From a virus, in IMG/VR virus record IMGVR_UViG_3300026533_000002, positions 54,977 through 118,976 of that record: a stretch of 64,000 nucleotides of DNA, one strand, 5' to 3'. This document shows positions 12,419-64,000 of this stretch, piece by piece. Both the position numbers and the translations under genes were made by a program. Positions within the stretch are counted from its first letter, which is position 1. Each line of letters begins with the position of its first letter. The notes under the pieces were generated by a model, which saw only the letters and a program-made list of their open reading frames with translations, ran no database searches and had not been told where the DNA came from.

Positions 12419-12549
12419 TATTAATCCTTTTATTTAATCTTATTATGCTGGTGTATACGTTGTTTTAAGAGGTGTATAAGCCTCTAAACTGCTAACAGGT
12501 ACTATGACATACCTGAAGCAGTATAATGCCTTGCAAGGCATTATATGGT

Positions 12550-13593
12550 CTAGATAAACTTAGATAGGTCGAATTTCTTAATAGTTTTAGTTAAGTAAAC
12601 TGTGCCATGATGATTATCACTGTATATCAGATTATTACCTTCTACATATTTTAAATCATTACTACCGAAGTACTTATTATTAAACTCGTCTTCAGCAGGG
12701 AATATCTCAATATCGTAGTTATTATCTAATTCTAAGTTATGTATAGTTTCTAATGGTACTTCAGTTCCGTCAGTATGCAATAACTTAGTAATAGTGTAAA
12801 CTTCTCTATCACCAGATGAAACATCTATGTTCAAGTCTTCTATTAAAGTTAGGATTAACTGCTCAGGGAATCTATTAGATTCTTCTATAATAGCATCAAG
12901 TATATCGAATGTAAACATTTTAGCTGTTCTATACACATACACAATCTCATCAACTCTTTCAGACTCTAATTTAGCTTCACATACTTTACGTATTACATCT
13001 TCAGGTAGCTTACCATATTCAAAGCTATACAGCATACGTCCAGGTCTATCTTTTAGGAACTCACTGATATGTCTTTTATAGTTATCAATAACTATAGATA
13101 AGCGTTTAGACGATGCTACTCCGTCAAAGAAGGACAGTAATGCATCTTGCGTGCTATTCCCATCTCTCCCTTTATACACTTTAGCAAACTCATCAAATAT
13201 TACTACCACTACACCTAAGTCATTGATAAAAGTATTGAATGAATCACCGCTATAAGACTCATTAACTAATACTACTGGAGTACCTTGAGCGATGGCCATA
13301 TTAGCTACTCTTTTAGCTAACTGTGTCTTACCACTTCCACGAGTCCCTGCTAATAATACTCCTGTTGCAGCATCTCTTACATTAAATGCTTTAATGATCT
13401 TACCAGCTCTTTCTTCTGTGTTACCGTATAGAGTAGGCTCACTAAATTTATCTTTACTTATTTCTAAGTAGTAAGTACCTGATAATGGTTCTTGACATAC
13501 TGTATAAACTTTAGGAGCTAACTTAGTAACTAACCCATCCTCATTGAACTTAATTACTTTTACTATATCACCTGTTGTTGAAAATCCATGCAT
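12550..13593 (-). CDS. AAA+ ATPase
   Basis: GTRGSGKT, VIFDEFAK, LLSFFDG, RPGR. Confidence 0.88.
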   Translation of the reverse strand: MHGFSTTGDIVKVIKFNEDGLVTKLAPKVYTVCQEPLSGTYYLEISKDKFSEPTLYGNTEERAGKIIKAFNVRDAATGVLLAGTRGSGKTQLAKRVANMAIAQGTPVVLVNESYSGDSFNTFINDLGVVVVIFDEFAKVYKGRDGNSTQDALLSFFDGVASSKRLSIVIDNYKRHISEFLKDRPGRMLYSFEYGKLPEDVIRKVCEAKLESERVDEIVYVYRTAKMFTFDILDAIIEESNRFPEQLILTLIEDLNIDVSSGDREVYTITKLLHTDGTEVPLETIHNLELDNNYDIEIFPAEDEFNNKYFGSNDLKYVEGNNLIYSDNHHGTVYLTKTIKKFDLSKFI

Positions 13594-39653: not shown

Positions 39654-40383
39654 TAAGATAGGTAGATTAGGTTATATGGAATGTGTTACTAGTAGTAGGT
39701 GTAATCTTAAAGTTAGCTGGAAAACACCTGATATCGTTGTTTTTTACTTAGTGAAAGATACCTTTTCAGGTGTTTAAATCTAGCTCAAAGTAAGTGTAGT
39801 ACGAGGTTTACCCCTATTGTATAATAAATATAAAGGCAGTACTATTCTCTCATGTGTCCTTATATAAGAGTATAAATGGAGGACTTAGTTTGGTGTCGGT
39901 TAGATTTGGACTAGATAAGAGTAGGTATTAGTTCTTATAAGAGTAGTATCTATCCTTATATAATAAGTAGCTAATAATAGTAGTTATCTTAAGTGAACCT
40001 TAAGAGCTACTAGTACCAAACCCCTATAATAGGGAGTTTGCTATGTTCTAAATAGTAGCTACTTGTAGCTATTTTATCAGTAGCTACTTTCCATCCCTTT
40101 ATATATAAGTACTATAAAAGGGTTACTTTTATGAGCATGGCTTATACGGTTTACCGGTAGCGGTTATTATTGAAGTCACATTGTGGATAGTTAGGTTCAA
40201 TAATAGGAGGTTAGTTTTAGGAGGTTAGTTTGTTGTTGAGTTGGTACTAGCCTTTGGTTGGGATGGTGAATACCTTGTACCAGAAAGTACCTTTCTTATA
40301 CTATAAGGAAAAGGTACAGCAAAGTACTCCAAACCCCGTAGCCAAGGGCCTTACAGGGAATTGGGTAGTCATCACAGTAGTGA

Positions 40384-40827
40384 CTACTTGAACTTATTAA
40401 ATCCCATATTTAGTACTATTGCTTCCCTTGGTATATTACCTTTGTGGTGTATCATTTGTATGAACTCCCATACCTTCTGCTCATCGCCTTTTACAGCTAG
40501 TAATGGGTTTACTATGAACTCATGGTCTAGTTGGAGCTTATTTATGAGATTACTCTGCTTTAACCTACTAATTGAGTTGCGTATTGTAGCTACTGTGTAT
40601 CCAGTGTCTCTCTTTAGAAGCTTTAGTGTGTCGCCATCTACTATAATATGGTTAGTATTAGTGCTGATATAAGTCATAATAGAGTCTAGTACACGTCTAT
40701 CATCAGATCTAAGGTCCTTGAACACTTTAAATGCTTTGTTGTTAGTCTGCAGAGTAATTCTACCTCTAGTGCCTTTAACTGCTTGTACTTTAACTCCACT
40801 TGGTCTGTTTGTCAATGATGCCATCAT
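40384..40827 (-). CDS. RepL-like winged-HTH protein
   Basis: GYTVATIRNSISRLKQSNLI...FIVNPLLAVKG; start at 40827 after AAGGA. Confidence 0.65.
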   Translation of the reverse strand: MMASLTNRPSGVKVQAVKGTRGRITLQTNNKAFKVFKDLRSDDRRVLDSIMTYISTNTNHIIVDGDTLKLLKRDTGYTVATIRNSISRLKQSNLINKLQLDHEFIVNPLLAVKGDEQKVWEFIQMIHHKGNIPREAIVLNMGFNKFK

Positions 40828-52438: not shown

Positions 52439-54387
52439 ATTTAGTACATGGTATGAGTGGTATGATGGGAGGATGCGGCTTACTACCAGGTCCTTGTGCT
52501 ACGCCTGAACAGTCTATAGTTAATTCTACAGACCCTTTTGGTGATGGTAGCTTGGTAGCTAAGTATTTGCTAGATGGCGATGCTACTGATCTATGTGGTA
52601 ACTATGACGGTGCAGAGAATGGAGGTGTAAGTTATGATATTGGTAGATTTGACCAATGTCTCTCCTTTGATGATGATGGAGAGAATGTAAGCTTTACTAC
52701 GCCTATAATGTCTGAGTGTACATACAGTACTTGGTCATATAATTCCTATGGTGGCGTTGAAACGGTTTACTTCATAGAAGATGCTGACAATAGAGGTGTT
52801 ATAGTTGCGCTTAAAGACGCTACAACTTTGCAAAATGGGTCGATAAAAATTGATGGGAGCTGGGTTGAGGGAGATGACATAACAATAGATGATATTACAG
52901 ACACATGGGTAAATGTTGTGACATCTATTGTAGGAGATACTAAGCATACATATATAAATGGTAAACTAGTCAATGTTACTTCAAATAATCTAGTGCCTAA
53001 TAGGCTAATAAATCCTGACTGTTTTATAGGAGATTCAGAGTATATTGATGGTGATGGGCTAATCGATCAAGTAGAAATCTACAATAGAGCCTTAAACCCT
53101 CAAGAAGTACAAATACTATACACTCAGTCAAAGTATTGCAGTGACCCAACTCAAGCTATATCAGGTTTAGTAGCTCACTATCCACTTGATGGAACAGCAG
53201 AAGATTTAACTGGTAACTATAATGGAACTGAAAATGGTGTGACTTATGTAGAAAGTGAGATGGGAATTGCTGGAAGTTTTGGTACTTCTGACGACCACAC
53301 TAAAATTACTATAGATATTCCAACATCAGGGTTACAAGAAATTACCATATCGTTCTTAGCTAAACCGAATTCAACAGAAATATGTGCATTAGGTAATTCC
53401 GAAGGCTCATCAATTTTTGAAATAAGAACGAATGGGCTATACGATAACGATATGATTGGTGATGATGTCCGATGTTGGGATAAGAGTCAGATAGACATTG
53501 AAGACAACTCTTGGTCACATATAGTGATGGTTTATAAGTCAGGAGACAATTCTATTACTATAAACAATGAAGTAGTTGCGAGTAATACTACTGAGTTTAC
53601 TGAGATTTTTTCAAATATTAATAAAATTGGTCAGGCATACAGTGGTAATGATGACTACTATATGGATGGTCAAATCAAAAATGTTCGTATCTACAACAGA
53701 GCATTGACAGCAGAAGAAATCAAGACAATTTATGATTATGAGAAAATAACTAGGAATATAGTTATAGACAGAGGTTTAGTAGCTTACTACCCTTTAAAGA
53801 ACAGTAGTGAAGATCATTGGGTTAGTCAGTATGATGGTGCAGATAACGGCGATGTTAGTTACGATGGTCAGAGTGCTTCGTTTGATGGTGATGGAGATTA
53901 CGTAGGTACTGGATTTGACGGTCTCAAGCTCGACGAATCATATTCGGCTAGTTGTTGGGTGAATAGTATTGATGTTGATAATAGTGCCTCTTTCTTAGGT
54001 ACCACTAGAAACGGCTCAAGAGGAGGGTTTGTACTAGAAAGTTCTGAAAGAGATGAGCCAGGAAGGTGTAAAGTTATAATTACTGATACTGATAGTAGTG
54101 CAGTTATCAGTGATGATAGTGCTACAAATATAACGGATGGAAATTGGTACTGCATAGCTTACACTTGGGACGCTAGCAACAAAGTAGGGAATGTATTTAT
54201 TAATACAGTAAAAGAAATAACTGTAACAACTGATAGTGTGTATGACCAATCTGATACTGAGTGGAGAGTAGTGACAAACGGTACAAATTTTGCCGGTAAT
54301 GTATCTAATTTTCGTTTATACAATAGGTTATTAAGCCAAGAAGAAATCACAACAATCTACGAAACGGAGAAAAAGGAATTTGAATAA
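52435..54387 (+). CDS. receptor-binding protein with three LamG/ConA-like domains
   Basis: Three LVAxYxL...YNRAL/YNRLL...EI..IY units. Confidence 0.8.
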   Translation: MNLVHGMSGMMGGCGLLPGPCATPEQSIVNSTDPFGDGSLVAKYLLDGDATDLCGNYDGAENGGVSYDIGRFDQCLSFDDDGENVSFTTPIMSECTYSTWSYNSYGGVETVYFIEDADNRGVIVALKDATTLQNGSIKIDGSWVEGDDITIDDITDTWVNVVTSIVGDTKHTYINGKLVNVTSNNLVPNRLINPDCFIGDSEYIDGDGLIDQVEIYNRALNPQEVQILYTQSKYCSDPTQAISGLVAHYPLDGTAEDLTGNYNGTENGVTYVESEMGIAGSFGTSDDHTKITIDIPTSGLQEITISFLAKPNSTEICALGNSEGSSIFEIRTNGLYDNDMIGDDVRCWDKSQIDIEDNSWSHIVMVYKSGDNSITINNEVVASNTTEFTEIFSNINKIGQAYSGNDDYYMDGQIKNVRIYNRALTAEEIKTIYDYEKITRNIVIDRGLVAYYPLKNSSEDHWVSQYDGADNGDVSYDGQSASFDGDGDYVGTGFDGLKLDESYSASCWVNSIDVDNSASFLGTTRNGSRGGFVLESSERDEPGRCKVIITDTDSSAVISDDSATNITDGNWYCIAYTWDASNKVGNVFINTVKEITVTTDSVYDQSDTEWRVVTNGTNFAGNVSNFRLYNRLLSQEEITTIYETEKKEFE

Positions 54388-55306: not shown

Positions 55307-56571
55307 TGGGATTCATAAATAAGATTAATACAGATGATACTAAGGATAGTCAACTAGACTCTGGTGAGTTGGCATTAGATGTATTTGAAGATGCTAATGA
55401 AGTATATGTTGGGTACGAGAATGCTGACGGTGATAAGTTTAACCTAATGGTTAATGCTGATAAGGCTAGAAGACTTAAAACACCTAGAAAGATATACCTC
55501 CAAGGTGAGGTAGTAGGTAATGTAGAGACAACATTTGAAGCTGATGCTGTGATGGATGTAGAACTATCTGGTACAGTACATAAGAAGTTAACAGTAGATA
55601 GTGCTGATAATGCTGATAACATTATCATGCTACATGATAATGAAATAGAGTATTGGTCGAATAGAAATGCTAATGACAGCTCTACTGGTTACTTGAGAAC
55701 TAATTACGGAGATGATAATGTAACTTTTGACATGAGTTTCTTTAATAAAGATAATGAGTTAGCGGCTCAAGGTTTAAGGCTGCATAAAGGAGGATCGCTA
55801 ACATACAGAGACAAGGTAATTATGAATGGGTTTGGTGTTGTAGGCAACTCTGAAGCAATTTCTATCTTCATTGACTACGAGAATGGTTCTGATGTTGATG
55901 GTGATGGTACAGAGGAGAATCCTTTTAAGACTATGGTAAAAGGGGCTAGTACAGTAGAGAACATAGATATTATAGCTATACTACTACTTAGCAATAATGC
56001 AACTCATGTTAACAATGAGCGAATAATAGTACGTACAACTAACCTTATTATTAAGACCTGGTATACAGATGGGAGCAGTAATGCTCAAGTACAGTTTAAC
56101 TCATATGCAGATGACGATTACTCTTATTTCTACAATGTAAGGACTAATGCACTTGGATCTGTAAGATTTAAATACTTGGACTTTGTGGGGTTAAGTAAAA
56201 CTGATGGTAAAGACTTTAAGTTAAATAGTTGTGGTGCAGGTTTGATCTGCCAAGATTCAGGCTCTATAGCAGCTACAGTAGAGTTCTGTACTATTGACCT
56301 TAAAGGTCTTGATAACTCAACTATAGTCATGGCTTTTCAATACGGTACTGCTATTAAACAGATTAGTATAGCTTATTGTGATATAGAGATAGGCGATACG
56401 GAGTCTATCTACTTAATAACTAACAGACACTCACACGCGTCTATAGCTTATGCTGAGAATGGGTGTAACCTAGATGACGGTGCGAAAGCTCGCCGCATTA
56501 GTGGAGTGCTTCGCAATGCTGATGGTACACCTATTAATATAATATCTAATATAAACTTCAGCGATGAGTAA
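55297..56571 (+). CDS. tail fibre/spike protein
   Basis: A.RL.TPR.I.L.G.V.G, ID.ENGSD..DGT..NPFKT. Confidence 0.7.
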   Translation: MELMGFINKINTDDTKDSQLDSGELALDVFEDANEVYVGYENADGDKFNLMVNADKARRLKTPRKIYLQGEVVGNVETTFEADAVMDVELSGTVHKKLTVDSADNADNIIMLHDNEIEYWSNRNANDSSTGYLRTNYGDDNVTFDMSFFNKDNELAAQGLRLHKGGSLTYRDKVIMNGFGVVGNSEAISIFIDYENGSDVDGDGTEENPFKTMVKGASTVENIDIIAILLLSNNATHVNNERIIVRTTNLIIKTWYTDGSSNAQVQFNSYADDDYSYFYNVRTNALGSVRFKYLDFVGLSKTDGKDFKLNSCGAGLICQDSGSIAATVEFCTIDLKGLDNSTIVMAFQYGTAIKQISIAYCDIEIGDTESIYLITNRHSHASIAYAENGCNLDDGAKARRISGVLRNADGTPINIISNINFSDE

Positions 56572-61230: not shown

Positions 61231-61383
61231 ATGCCTGATAAGTTAAAGATAGAAGTAGCCGATATAGCAGAGAGATTAGATTCTCTCTCTAGTCAGGTTA
61301 GCTTCAATAGAAATGTGGATATAGCTATACTAATCATAGGATTACTTAGTCTTGGGTTTACAGTATATAGGTGGACAATGTAA
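61231..61383 (+). CDS. small membrane protein (50 aa)
   Basis: Not in track; coiled N-terminus plus C-terminal TM. Confidence 0.45.
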   Translation: MPDKLKIEVADIAERLDSLSSQVSFNRNVDIAILIIGLLSLGFTVYRWTM

Positions 61384-61466
61384 TGATAGTAGATTTTATA
61401 CTAAAGATTGTCGAGATTGTCGGAGGGACTGTAGTAGTCTTTGGATTAATGCAGGCTATAAAATAA
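61383..61466 (+). CDS. 27-aa hydrophobic peptide
   Basis: Coupled by TAATG overlap; MIVDFILKIVEIVGGTVVVFGLMQAIK. Confidence 0.35.
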   Translation: MIVDFILKIVEIVGGTVVVFGLMQAIK

Positions 61467-61476
61467 GGAGTTAACA

Positions 61477-62118
61477 ATGGCAGCAGAAGAACAACCTACG
61501 ACTAGCCTACTAGAAGAGAGGGTTGAGACTGTTAAGCGATATGGTGTGGCTGGTCTAGTTGTTATTCTGGTACCATTCTTTACCCCCTACATAGAGGACT
61601 ATATGTCCAAGCAGCAAGAAGATACTATGAGGGTTATAGCTAGAGAGATAGGGACAGATCTTAAAACTAGTATAGTTAGGCATATAGATAAGTCTAATAA
61701 GGTTGATGTTGATACACTAGTTACAATTACTAGGTTATCAGTTGCAAAGCAGTCTATTCATAAGGTTAAGTTTATTAAAGAATTACTTAATAAGTATAAA
61801 GGCTGTGAGGTAGACAATAGTGATAGAATTAAAAGTAAGATAAAGACAGAACTATATAGGCAATCAGCTATTTATGTAACCTTCTTAAATAAGTTTGAAG
61901 ACCCTGTGATAGGTAGGATAGGTGATTACATAGCCGCAGAGTTTCCTATGACTGTATTCTTAGAAGGTGTTAATGTAATAGCTTTAGATACAGAGATTTC
62001 AGTAGATGTCAGGTCAGATGATATAATGGTTTATATGCTTGATATACAAGATACATTCTTTACTGAGATGGAGCATAAAATGAAAAGAGGTATATATGAT
62101 ACTAGATACTATAAGTAA
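61477..62118 (+). CDS. membrane-anchored lysis-cassette protein
   Basis: One N-proximal TM plus helical soluble domain; AAGGAG RBS. Confidence 0.6.
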   Translation: MAAEEQPTTSLLEERVETVKRYGVAGLVVILVPFFTPYIEDYMSKQQEDTMRVIAREIGTDLKTSIVRHIDKSNKVDVDTLVTITRLSVAKQSIHKVKFIKELLNKYKGCEVDNSDRIKSKIKTELYRQSAIYVTFLNKFEDPVIGRIGDYIAAEFPMTVFLEGVNVIALDTEISVDVRSDDIMVYMLDIQDTFFTEMEHKMKRGIYDTRYYK

Positions 62119-62548
62119 TTTATTTGGTTCAGTTGTTGGAGGTGTTACAGAACACTTTAAAGGTAAGCAAGAACTTAAACGAATTAAACTAGAAGCAGAT
62201 AAAGAGATGTTAAGTATAGATGCTAAAGCTAGAGTAGCTATACAGCAGGCTAAAATAGATATGCTAAAGTCTAGTCAAGATAATGACTTTAAGTTAGACA
62301 TGATAGCTATGCAGAATATGAATAGATCTTATAAGGATGACTTTATATTAGCTATATTCTTACTTCCATTAGTAGCTGCATTTATACCAGAAGCACAAGG
62401 GTACATAATGGGTGGATTTCAGCTTATGGCTTATATCCCTGATTGGTGGATATACCTTACTATTGGTATGGTTGTATCTATAATGGGCCTTAGGGGATTA
62501 CTAAGAGATTTCCTTAAGGGAAAGAAAGTACCTATTATAAAAAAGTAG
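62096..62548 (+). CDS. holin (3TM/GTA-holin-like family)
   Basis: SYKDDFIL..PL...FIP, GF, PDWW, GLR. Confidence 0.75.
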   Translation: MILDTISNLFGSVVGGVTEHFKGKQELKRIKLEADKEMLSIDAKARVAIQQAKIDMLKSSQDNDFKLDMIAMQNMNRSYKDDFILAIFLLPLVAAFIPEAQGYIMGGFQLMAYIPDWWIYLTIGMVVSIMGLRGLLRDFLKGKKVPIIKK

Positions 62549-62985
62549 TATACCCACAGCCTAAGATAGAGCACAAGAAGTACGACTTTAAAGAGTCAGA
62601 GTTCGCTTGTAAATGTGGTTGTGGGTTTAATGCTGTAGATACTGAGTTGCTAGATGTATTGCAGGATGCTAGAGACCATTTCGTTAGTAAATATGGAGAA
62701 GGAGCTAAATGTATTATTACTAGCGGTAACAGATGCAAAGCTCATAATGAAGTAGTTCAATTACAAGCTAATCCTCAATATAAGGCATTTACTTCTAAGA
62801 GTAAGCATATGGAAGGTATAGCTGCTGACCACAAGTTTATTAAACCTGATGGTAAGGTTATTGACCCTAAGGAAGTATTGGGCTACTACGAGTCTTTGTA
62901 TCCTAATAAGTATGGGTTAGGTCTTTACAGTAATAGAGTGCATTTAGATGTGAGAAATAGTAAAGCTAGATGGAGTACGGTATAA
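62545..62985 (+). CDS. peptidase M15A endolysin domain (no own start codon; probably reached by -1 frameshift)
   Basis: FKESEFACKCGCG, ITSGNRC.AHN, SKHMEGIAAD, GLGLY..RVHLDVR; frame open from 62518, first possible start TTG 62647. Confidence 0.85.
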   Translation, partial: VVYPQPKIEHKKYDFKESEFACKCGCGFNAVDTELLDVLQDARDHFVSKYGEGAKCIITSGNRCKAHNEVVQLQANPQYKAFTSKSKHMEGIAADHKFIKPDGKVIDPKEVLGYYESLYPNKYGLGLYSNRVHLDVRNSKARWSTV

Positions 62986-63010
62986 TGCTCCTTAAAGATC
63001 AGGAGTACTA

Positions 63011-64000
63011 ATGAATGAAGAACAAGATATTACAGTAACTAAAAGTAAAACAAAGATACAGCCTAAGTGGAAGAATGCTCCTACTATGGCAGACTTAGAT
63101 GCTGACAGGTTATCTGCAGAATCTAGTCAAGATGAGTTTAGAGCTAAACTATTAGAGTGGGAACTTATCCGTAATGGTGGTAAAGAGATTAAACCTTCTA
63201 AGATAGGTAAATCTACTGCCAGACCTTTACTAGTTCGTAAAGTATATGAATGGAAATACTCCGCACTAGAAGACCCTATACTTAGCTCTAGTGCTCTGTT
63301 CAAGCTTACAGGTAGAACTTATGCAGATACAGCAGCAGCTAAACAGAATGGCTCTGTAATCAATTACCAGTGGAATACTAAAGTACAGAAGACTAAGTTA
63401 GTTAGTGATATTATCCACACACTAGTAGATGAAGGTACTGTTATAGTTAAGACTGGCTGGGTAGCTGAGACAGAACTACAGCAAGTAGAGAAAGAAGTTC
63501 CTACTTATGCCTCTCCAGAAGAATCTTATATGTTAATGCAAAAGATGGTTGAGTCTGGAAAGATGTCTCCTGAACAAGCACAAGCTATGTTAGAGACTGG
63601 TGAACCTATGCAAGTCGGTACAGAGATACAAATGGTAGAGGAAGAAGTACTAACTCGTAACCATCCAAAGTATGAAGTATGTGTTAATGCTAATGTTACT
63701 ATTGACCCTACTTGCGATGGAGTTGTAGCTGATGCATTATTCGCTATACATGAGTACGACACATCATATGCTGAGCTTAAAGCTGATGAGTACTATGTAG
63801 ATGAAGAAGGTAACGAGAACGGTATCTATCATAATATAGACTACATCCAAACTAATGGTGAGAGAGATGAGTACGACGAGCATACATCAGATGCTTCTAA
63901 TAACTTTGAGTTTAAAGATAAAGCTAGAAAGAGATTAAGAGCTTTTGAGTACTGGGGTTACTGGGATATTCAAGGTGATGGGGACTTAGTATCTATAGTT
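63011..64000 (+). CDS. portal protein (N4 gp59-like), truncated by window edge
   Basis: Not in track; WKNAPT..DL, GKS..P.LVRK.YEWKYSALEDP, AKQN..VINYQWNTK, VDEGTVIVKTGW, IDPTC.G, EYWGYWDI.GDG. Confidence 0.92.
   Translation, partial: MNEEQDITVTKSKTKIQPKWKNAPTMADLDADRLSAESSQDEFRAKLLEWELIRNGGKEIKPSKIGKSTARPLLVRKVYEWKYSALEDPILSSSALFKLTGRTYADTAAAKQNGSVINYQWNTKVQKTKLVSDIIHTLVDEGTVIVKTGWVAETELQQVEKEVPTYASPEESYMLMQKMVESGKMSPEQAQAMLETGEPMQVGTEIQMVEEEVLTRNHPKYEVCVNANVTIDPTCDGVVADALFAIHEYDTSYAELKADEYYVDEEGNENGIYHNIDYIQTNGERDEYDEHTSDASNNFEFKDKARKRLRAFEYWGYWDIQGDGDLVSIV

Follow-up and report, generated by a model that had tools for sequence, protein, structure and literature searches.

The window analysed here, 64,000 nt in length, is the last 64 kb of a virus record in IMG/VR (IMGVR_UViG_3300026533_000002; 118,976 bp, 34.9% G+C), and close to its 3′ end lies a putative lysis cassette in which a holin-like protein and a peptidoglycan peptidase appear to be joined by programmed -1 ribosomal frameshifting. 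The holin-like open reading frame (ORF), at 62096..62548 in the ORF list, encodes 150 amino acids (aa) in what is here called the 0 frame and matches phrog_2524; it lies on the + strand, as do the proposed frameshift site, the predicted stem-loop and the peptidase frame. Its last codons read ATA (62537), AAA (62540), AAG (62543) and TAG (62546), and they hold the heptamer A_AAA_AAG (62539..62545) in X_XXY_YYZ phase, with the TAG stop (62546..62548) immediately 3′ of it. The -1 frame continues from the heptamer (62545..62985; 146 codons plus a stop) as a 14-residue linker, VVYPQPKIEHKKYD, followed by an M15 peptidase.

The Proposed Frameshift Site and Its Predicted Stem-Loop

The open -1 frame spans 62518-62985, and its first canonical start is the TTG at 62647..62649, which is the codon used by automatic gene calls; between 62500 and 62606, no ATG, GTG or TTG occurs in any of the frames. 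At the position where homologues usually carry an ATG, the window has an ATA codon (62566..62568) that is polymorphic, reading GTA or GTC in variants. An earlier note on this DNA, made from its letters without database searches, had recorded that the M15 frame is open from 62518 and has no ATG, GTG or TTG until 62647, that the heptamer stands in the correct phase directly before the holin stop, and that the endolysin is in the -1 frame relative to the holin. Reading of the sequence and computation of the frames bear these statements out, and what the note had observed of heptamer, frames and stem is confirmed in every detail.

The motif AAAAAAG is depleted in the window, with 5 copies against the 16.7 ± 4.3 expected from shuffles, and across the 118,976-bp genome it occurs 10 times, eight of these in the sense orientation inside ORFs; only the copy at 62539 is in slippery phase. 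A_AAA_AAG is exceptionally slippery in bacteria with a single lysine tRNA, according to the available text of a review of recoding (PMC5009743). A second heptamer, G_GGA_AAG, of the type used in phage lambda G/GT, lies in phase at 62518-62524, 21 nt 5′ of A_AAA_AAG and at the point where the -1 frame opens. It was considered as a second slip site and set aside as probably due to chance, a common variant (G>A at 62518) breaking it.

A predicted stimulatory stem-loop occupies 62552..62626. In the minimum-free-energy fold, its outer 10-bp stem pairs ACCCACAGCC (62552-62561) with GGTTGTGGGT (62617-62626) and encloses inner helices that include GACTT/GAGTC; it begins 6 nt after the heptamer, as the earlier note had proposed. 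The 95-nt segment 62546-62640 folds at -31.1 kcal/mol (z -4.82), a stability reached by none of 200 shuffles and by 14 of the 15,852 overlapping 95-nt segments scanned on both strands of the genome. The other most stable 95-nt folds (-31.7 to -34.2 kcal/mol) are found at 56430-56540, 12450-12660, 52470-52565, 40265-40405 and 1190-1285. Searched against Rfam, 62300-62800 gave no match to a frameshift element and two matches at chance level only (PYLIS_3, E 1.1; SNORD15, E 8.9). No convincing Shine-Dalgarno-like stimulator was found upstream at the spacing seen in dnaX (AAGGGA sits 17 nt upstream), and no terminator was found between the holin-like and peptidase genes.

The Peptidase and Its Missing Start

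The -1 frame encodes a Peptidase_M15_3 domain, a zinc peptidase domain of the LAS fold (Pfam PF08291; 62587..62949, + strand). The match covers residues 24-144 of the frame and positions 3-108 of the 108-position profile (E 1.8e-10) and scores 41.4 bits against a cut-off of 23.2; in a whole-genome search, the score was 39.2 bits, still over the cut-off. The same frame matches phrog_894, annotated as 'endolysin' (E 4.3e-26). Residues H97, D104 and H142 of the peptidase (P0001) are invariant across 12 aligned sequences and are putative zinc ligands, an assignment that presumes H-x6-D with a distal H to be the metal-ligand motif. An AlphaFold2 model based on these 12 sequences has a mean predicted local distance difference test score (pLDDT) of 82.4; residues 1-18 are disordered, the fold begins at about residue 21 (mean pLDDT of 86 for residues 21-30), and a helix runs from 42 to 59. 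Foldseek relates the model to LAS-fold cell-wall peptidases, namely Ply500 (2vo9, E 3.6e-4), LysB4, ChiX, VanX and the T5 endolysin. Sequence searches of the PDB, with P0001 and with the alignment profile, returned nothing significant.

The N-terminal part of this domain must be translated, because the Pfam match, a conserved motif and the modelled fold all precede or span the TTG. The domain starts at about 62587, 60 nt (20 residues) before TTG 62647, in agreement with the earlier note's claim that the TTG lies 3′ of a conserved segment; the motif EFACKCGCGF, which lies in the open frame 5′ of the TTG, agrees with the family consensus; and the TTG is residue 44, within helix 42-59 of the model, which it interrupts. 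PF08291 has a single match in the whole genome, and searches with PF00959 (Phage_lysozyme), PF01510 (Amidase_2) and PF01464 (SLT) found no match in it. Since this is the only match of its kind, those three families are missing and variants in the frame are mostly synonymous (see below), the M15 peptidase is probably the endolysin of the phage and under purifying selection.

The lack of a usable start is shared by the near relatives. The cluster of proteins more than 90% identical to the peptidase has six members, called at 108-112 aa on contigs from JGI and ENA, the longest of which measures 105,446 bp; a relative with 73% identity, on a contig of 16.5 kb, was called at 105 aa. All seven database entries begin at the internal position equivalent to the TTG; a canonical start would have given a longer gene call, and the missing start is therefore common to these relatives. 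The picture of a peptidase without a normal start, drawn in the earlier note from the window alone, thus extends to them. Among distant homologues (at most 52% identical), 79 of 80 IMG/VR loci have a canonical start 5-98 residues ahead of the domain, the exception being cut by a contig end, and all 80 metagenome loci (homologues at most 49% identical) have one 3-38 residues ahead of it. The modal start in these distant homologues is 7 residues before the domain, where the window has ATA 62566; the codon looks like a lost ATG and not like a conserved alternative start. IMG/VR scans with the holin and with P0010 and P0003 returned no close relative.

The Holin-Like Protein

The match of the holin-like protein to phrog_2524 has an E value of 1.6e-19, and PHROG lists the function of that family as unknown. 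Relatives in GenBank have been annotated by their depositors as 'holin' (Pseudoalteromonas phages ACA1 and ACA2), 'TMhelix containing protein' and 'similar to DUF3154', and the record of one relative carries the note 'GTA_holin_3TM/DUF3154'. In Pfam, none of 21 family members matches any relevant model; none matches PF11351, and the filing of the family under GTA_holin_3TM was accordingly dropped. The protein has two hydrophobic segments (residues 83-100 and 117-136) connected by an uncharged loop, an N-terminal part that is helical and rich in lysine and arginine (13 K/R in residues 21-82), and a basic tail (R133, R137 and five further K/R in residues 138-150). Both ends would be cytoplasmic according to the positive-inside rule. 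Its context and architecture suggest that the protein is a holin, and it is so called below.

Eighty loci in IMG/VR carry a relative of this holin. An M15 gene with a canonical start, often ATGA-coupled, lies directly downstream in 53 of them; two have the M15 peptidase fused in frame, one has it upstream, and in 24 no M15 was detected (several of the 20 inspected among these have a lysozyme-type gene instead). A scan of genome contigs with the holin found five distant prophage holins, none with an M15 neighbour.

Two further arrangements within the holin family may be recorded here. At L178:2920-3447, a holin 48% identical to that of the window ends TCG GGA AAG TAA, with G_GGA_AAG in phase, and a T4-lysozyme-like ORF follows in the -1 frame, its first canonical start falling after the catalytic EG...D...T motif. 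This locus is either a second case of frameshifting or the result of a 1-nt indel, and it was not accepted as a second example of the arrangement in the window: an out-of-frame ATG with a good ribosome-binding site stands where the relatives L176 and L177 start, and an indel explains the locus at least as well. In P0086 and P0098 (283-289 aa), whose clusters have 5 and 17 members on contigs reaching 42 kb, a DUF5675 domain is fused to the N-terminus of a holin of the same family. With DUF5675 at the N-terminus and the peptidase at the C-terminus, enzyme-like domains thus occur on either end of this holin family.

In-Frame Holin-Peptidase Fusions in Relatives

The best match in an exhaustive HMMER search with the holin was P0034, a protein of 308 aa whose N-terminal 141 residues are 68% identical to it. 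P0034 consists of phrog_2524 (residues 5-140) followed by phrog_894 'endolysin' (residues 168-301, E 1.9e-17), the same order as in the window, and its cluster has two members, P0034 and P0184, both of 308 aa. In two IMG/VR contigs, L162 (42 kb) and L163 (73 kb), the 308-codon fusion ORF is uninterrupted. The holin parts of P0034, L162 and L163 are about 65-71% identical to the holin of the window. Because these proteins and contigs carry both families in one ORF, the fusion of holin and peptidase is a real natural architecture among close relatives of the holin.

In the GenBank phage collection, none of 130 matching records covers at least 80% of P0034, and the full fusion is absent from the cultured phages there. 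Among cultured phages, the nearest match to the peptidase part of the fusion is found in Sulfurimonas phage SNW-1 (OP810509.1, 1498-1905; 55.6% identity), a phage from a sulfide chimney in which the peptidase is a separate, ATGA-coupled M15 gene (locus L253). On this hint, the hosts of the phages with the fusion may be vent Campylobacterota. For P0034, AlphaFold2 run on the single sequence gave a model of insufficient quality (pLDDT 44.3), which was not used.

Sequence Variants and Integrity of the Assembly

Contigs bearing this stretch were found in three sequencing runs from three studies (X1, X2 and X3), all labelled as hydrothermal vent metagenomes, of which X1 may be the source of the virus record. 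Logan contigs of these runs were aligned to 61900-63100 at a likeness of at least 80%. Five contig records span the heptamer (records 3 and 4 from X1, 10 and 11 from X2, and 15 from X3), and none has a gap there. An assembly indel at 62539-62545, which the earlier note had wished to see excluded, is unlikely on this observation. Indels occur in record 10 alone (87% identity to the window), as two pairs, 62522/62529 and 62567/71; since the members of each pair compensate for one another, the -1 relation is kept in this variant too. The letters of the heptamer are unchanged in records 3, 4 and 11, records 10 and 15 being known to be gap-free there. Record 11 differs from the window at only five places (62488, 62494, 62518, 62566 and 62571), and its heptamer and 5′ stem arm are therefore unchanged.

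Four of the six listed variants in the peptidase frame are synonymous (62685, 62694, 62913 and 62952), and the other two, 62864 (D>A) and 62956 (N>D), alter a residue and are differences found among members of the protein cluster. In the holin tail, each of the four variants listed (62488, 62494, 62518 and 62536) is synonymous when read in the holin frame. At 62566, A>G (GTA) accounts for 14.9 of a depth of 30.9 in run X2, and record 10 has GTC.

Proposed Mechanism

Taken together, these features make it probable that programmed -1 frameshifting yields two products from this locus, a 150-aa holin and a 296-aa holin-peptidase, the lengths that the earlier note had given and that follow from the sequence. 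Most ribosomes would stop at the TAG at 62546 and release the 150-aa membrane protein. The stem-loop 6 nt downstream would hold ribosomes that are decoding AAA-AAG, and a fraction of these would slip one base back, re-pair on AAA-AAA and go on to read GTA GTA TAC CCA and so forth. The predicted product of the shift, whose junction (VPIIKK-VVYPQPK) and length are read straight from the sequence, would comprise the whole holin, the short linker and the M15 (LAS-fold) peptidoglycan peptidase. Frameshifting thus appears to be the only route to a complete copy of the only recognisable endolysin of the phage. The holin's C-terminus being predicted to be cytoplasmic, the enzyme would be tethered at the cytoplasmic face of the membrane until the holin triggers, and might then gain access to the wall at the lesion or through it, after cleavage, or by a flip of the C-terminus such as has been proposed for fusions of the TpeE type. 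As a speculation, the fusion could also act like an antiholin and influence the formation of holes. The slippage itself, its efficiency, the 'fixed ratio' of the products and the delivery of the tethered enzyme to the wall are what we infer. Every part of the earlier note's interpretation that the sequence can test held, and that interpretation is to this extent supported.

Several observations weigh against frameshifting as the explanation, or against parts of it. The conserved CGCG motif is encoded in the 3′ arm of the stem, so that freedom to evolve is left to the 5′ arm alone, which lies in the linker, and part of the pairing could be a by-product of coding. No compensatory changes were seen in the stem, the variants compared being only about 87-99% identical, and the comparison of heptamer, phase and stem at the level of DNA was likewise confined to this range. 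None of the other 78 IMG/VR holin loci, the two in-frame fusions aside, has a clear frameshift arrangement, and at E ≤ 1e-10 no fused form came up in a search for longer proteins containing the peptidase. Between the in-frame fusions and the window, the peptidase domains are only remotely related (23% identity, E 0.16) and the linkers show no significant similarity; homology between KKVVYPQPK and KEVFHPPAK was considered and rejected, shuffled sequences having scored as high in 1109-1986 of 2000 trials. With peptidases so distant and linkers so dissimilar, descent of the arrangement in the window from such a fusion cannot be asserted. The predicted cytoplasmic C-terminus would leave the route of the tethered enzyme to the wall unexplained.

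Alternative Explanations

A very unlikely alternative is initiation at a non-canonical codon of the -1 frame, such as ATA at 62566; the peptidase would then be made as a free protein of about 139 aa, without any fusion. This ATA is placed where homologues most frequently have their ATG, 7 residues before the domain, and is the sole near-cognate start in that frame before the domain. However, the codon is GTA in about half of the X2 depth and GTC in the 87%-identical contig, and neither is a start codon; the earlier note had named ATA 62566 as a possible independent start, and these variants argue against initiation there. No Shine-Dalgarno-like sequence precedes 62566, whereas the holin has AGAGGT and the portal gene CAGGAG, and initiation at this codon would leave the in-phase heptamer and the stem unaccounted for.

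Transcriptional slippage, in which the polymerase would add one A within the A6 run at 62539-62544, would give the same 296-aa fusion in frame, and is considered very unlikely. Slippage-prone runs in bacteria usually have nine or more A or T residues, and a run of six is short by comparison. The exact X_XXY_YYZ phase would be unnecessary, and a stable stem at 6 nt, the hallmark of a ribosomal stimulator, would have no role for a polymerase. Nevertheless, the A6 run is present, a single extra A would encode an identical protein, the in-frame fusions of relatives fit equally well, and dnaX of Thermus thermophilus does use polymerase slippage (PMC5009743, available text).

A comparably small chance is given to the possibility that a frameshift mutation has broken an ancestral in-frame fusion, the peptidase being a decaying pseudogene and lysis being achieved by something else. 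Relatives do have the in-frame fusion, and one extra A restores the frame in the window. The 146-codon frame is intact all the same, with invariant putative catalytic residues and four synonymous variants among the six listed; in the 73%-identical relative, the peptidase is likewise open and conserved, and its call is truncated in the same way; and the genome has no match to the other endolysin families searched (PF00959, PF01510 and PF01464). Nor would a random indel be expected to fall on the sole in-phase heptamer with a structure in the top 0.1% standing 6 nt behind it.

A systematic sequencing or assembly error, by which the true phage would have seven A's and a plain in-frame fusion, is rated as highly improbable. 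The break does lie in a homopolymer, and some relatives have the fusion in frame; against this, five contig records from three runs and three studies span the site without a gap, and independent JGI and ENA assemblies yield the same truncated call. Homopolymers of six bases are not prone to error in short-read data, the library type of the sequencing runs not being on record.

Least credible of all is that the peptidase starts at TTG 62647 and functions as a 112-aa protein: the TTG is the first canonical start, the form annotated in all seven database entries, and the putative metal ligands all lie downstream of it, but starting there would lose 20 Pfam-covered residues including EFACKCGCGF, conserved in the open frame upstream, and would cut helix 42-59 of a confident model, and 159 of 160 distant-homologue loci start before the domain.

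Genomic Context

The gene 3′ of the peptidase encodes a portal protein of the SU10 type (Pfam E 3.5e-40), about 37% identical to the portals of N4-like Vibrio and Pseudomonas phages; no near DNA relative of the window was found in the GenBank phage collection. Just 5′ of the holin, at 61231-62118, are three more ORFs for small membrane proteins: one of 50 aa with a hydrophobic segment at its C-terminus, an overlapping hydrophobic one of 31 aa, and one of 213 aa with an N-terminal hydrophobic segment, whose 3′ end overlaps the start of the holin by 23 nt. These may be further parts of the lysis cassette, for example spanin-like or antiholin-like proteins.

Significance

Phage lysis is usually viewed as the work of separate holin and endolysin genes, the amounts and timing of whose products are set by transcription, dual starts and antiholins. 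If the mechanism proposed here is correct, one message would give both holin and a fixed minority of enzyme-bearing holin, recoding would join the known controls of lysis, and programmed frameshifting in tailed phages would extend beyond the genes for tail chaperones and capsids. On a balance tilted only slightly in its favour, a lineage of vent phages makes its only endolysin solely as a frameshift-dependent extension of the holin, with slippage setting the ratio of enzyme to holin, sister phages having the fusion hard-wired, and the strategy being unpublished. An endolysin tethered to a holin, whether in frame or dosed by frameshifting, would then be a distinct strategy of phage lysis, and one not so far described in print. 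The subject bears on how holins pass folded enzymes across the membrane, and the pair of in-frame and frameshift-dosed forms would offer an experimental handle on the delivery of C-terminally tethered cargo, for which a flipping model is outlined in the available text of PMC9527704. There is also a consequence for annotation: as gene callers give a fragment of 108-112 aa (105 aa in the 73%-identical relative) in all seven entries, endolysins of this kind are likely to be systematically mis-annotated.

Comparison With Known Systems

The tau/gamma site of Escherichia coli dnaX resembles that of the window in having the identical heptamer, a stem-loop about 6 nt downstream and two products from each message. 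It differs in that the shifted ribosome soon stops and releases the shorter product, whereas the shift in the window would add an enzyme part of 146 residues, and in having an upstream Shine-Dalgarno-like stimulator, of which the window has no convincing counterpart at that spacing. In the IS3-family elements IS911 and IS150 (OrfA/OrfAB), slippage on A_AAA_AAG occurs near the end of the upstream ORF with the help of a 3′ structure, the upstream product is also made alone, and the fusion bears a catalytic domain that has no usable start. The window shares with these elements the slip site, the 3′ structure and a fusion-borne catalytic domain without a start of its own; the differences are that theirs is a transposase and that the window concerns a lysis cassette in which the 0-frame stop directly follows the heptamer.

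Among phages, the tail chaperone genes G and GT of lambda use a conserved -1 frameshift at G_GGA_AAG to make, in a set ratio, a short protein and a version of it with a C-terminal extension. In contrast to the window, the heptamer is another one, the genes belong to a tail-assembly module, and the extension is not an enzyme. Within lysis systems, the S105 and S107 forms made from the one holin gene of lambda set the timing of lysis, and signal-anchor-release (SAR) endolysins are held in the membrane until triggering. Both are unlike the arrangement proposed here, the former relying on alternative initiation and the latter on a Sec-exported N-terminal anchor; neither involves a frameshift or a tether to the C-terminus of a holin.

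The earlier note had held that frameshifting was not known from lysis cassettes, and the literature search agrees: a frameshift joining a holin to an endolysin was not found, in-frame fusions of the two being already in print (PMC9527704), and neither 'endolysin' nor 'holin' was found in the searched text of the recoding review (PMC5009743). The latter does cite phage MS2, in which expression of the lysis gene depends on frameshifting in the coat gene, and the available text on Streptomyces phages (PMC9671017) reports putative frameshifts predicted by GeneMark near holin and endolysin genes, with no holin-endolysin fusion. The printed in-frame fusion is that of the TpeE family of Clostridium sporogenes, for which C-terminal flipping has been proposed; its holins belong to an unrelated family with one transmembrane helix (PMC9527704, available text). 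TpeE, P0034, L162 and L163 are like the fusion predicted for the window in placing the holin N-terminal and the endolysin C-terminal in one polypeptide. They differ from it in being single ORFs in which every holin carries the enzyme, whereas the window would give free holin together with a minority of fusion. What would be new in the window is thus the use of a dnaX/IS3-type -1 frameshift to make a fusion of holin and endolysin for which relatives have a single in-frame ORF.

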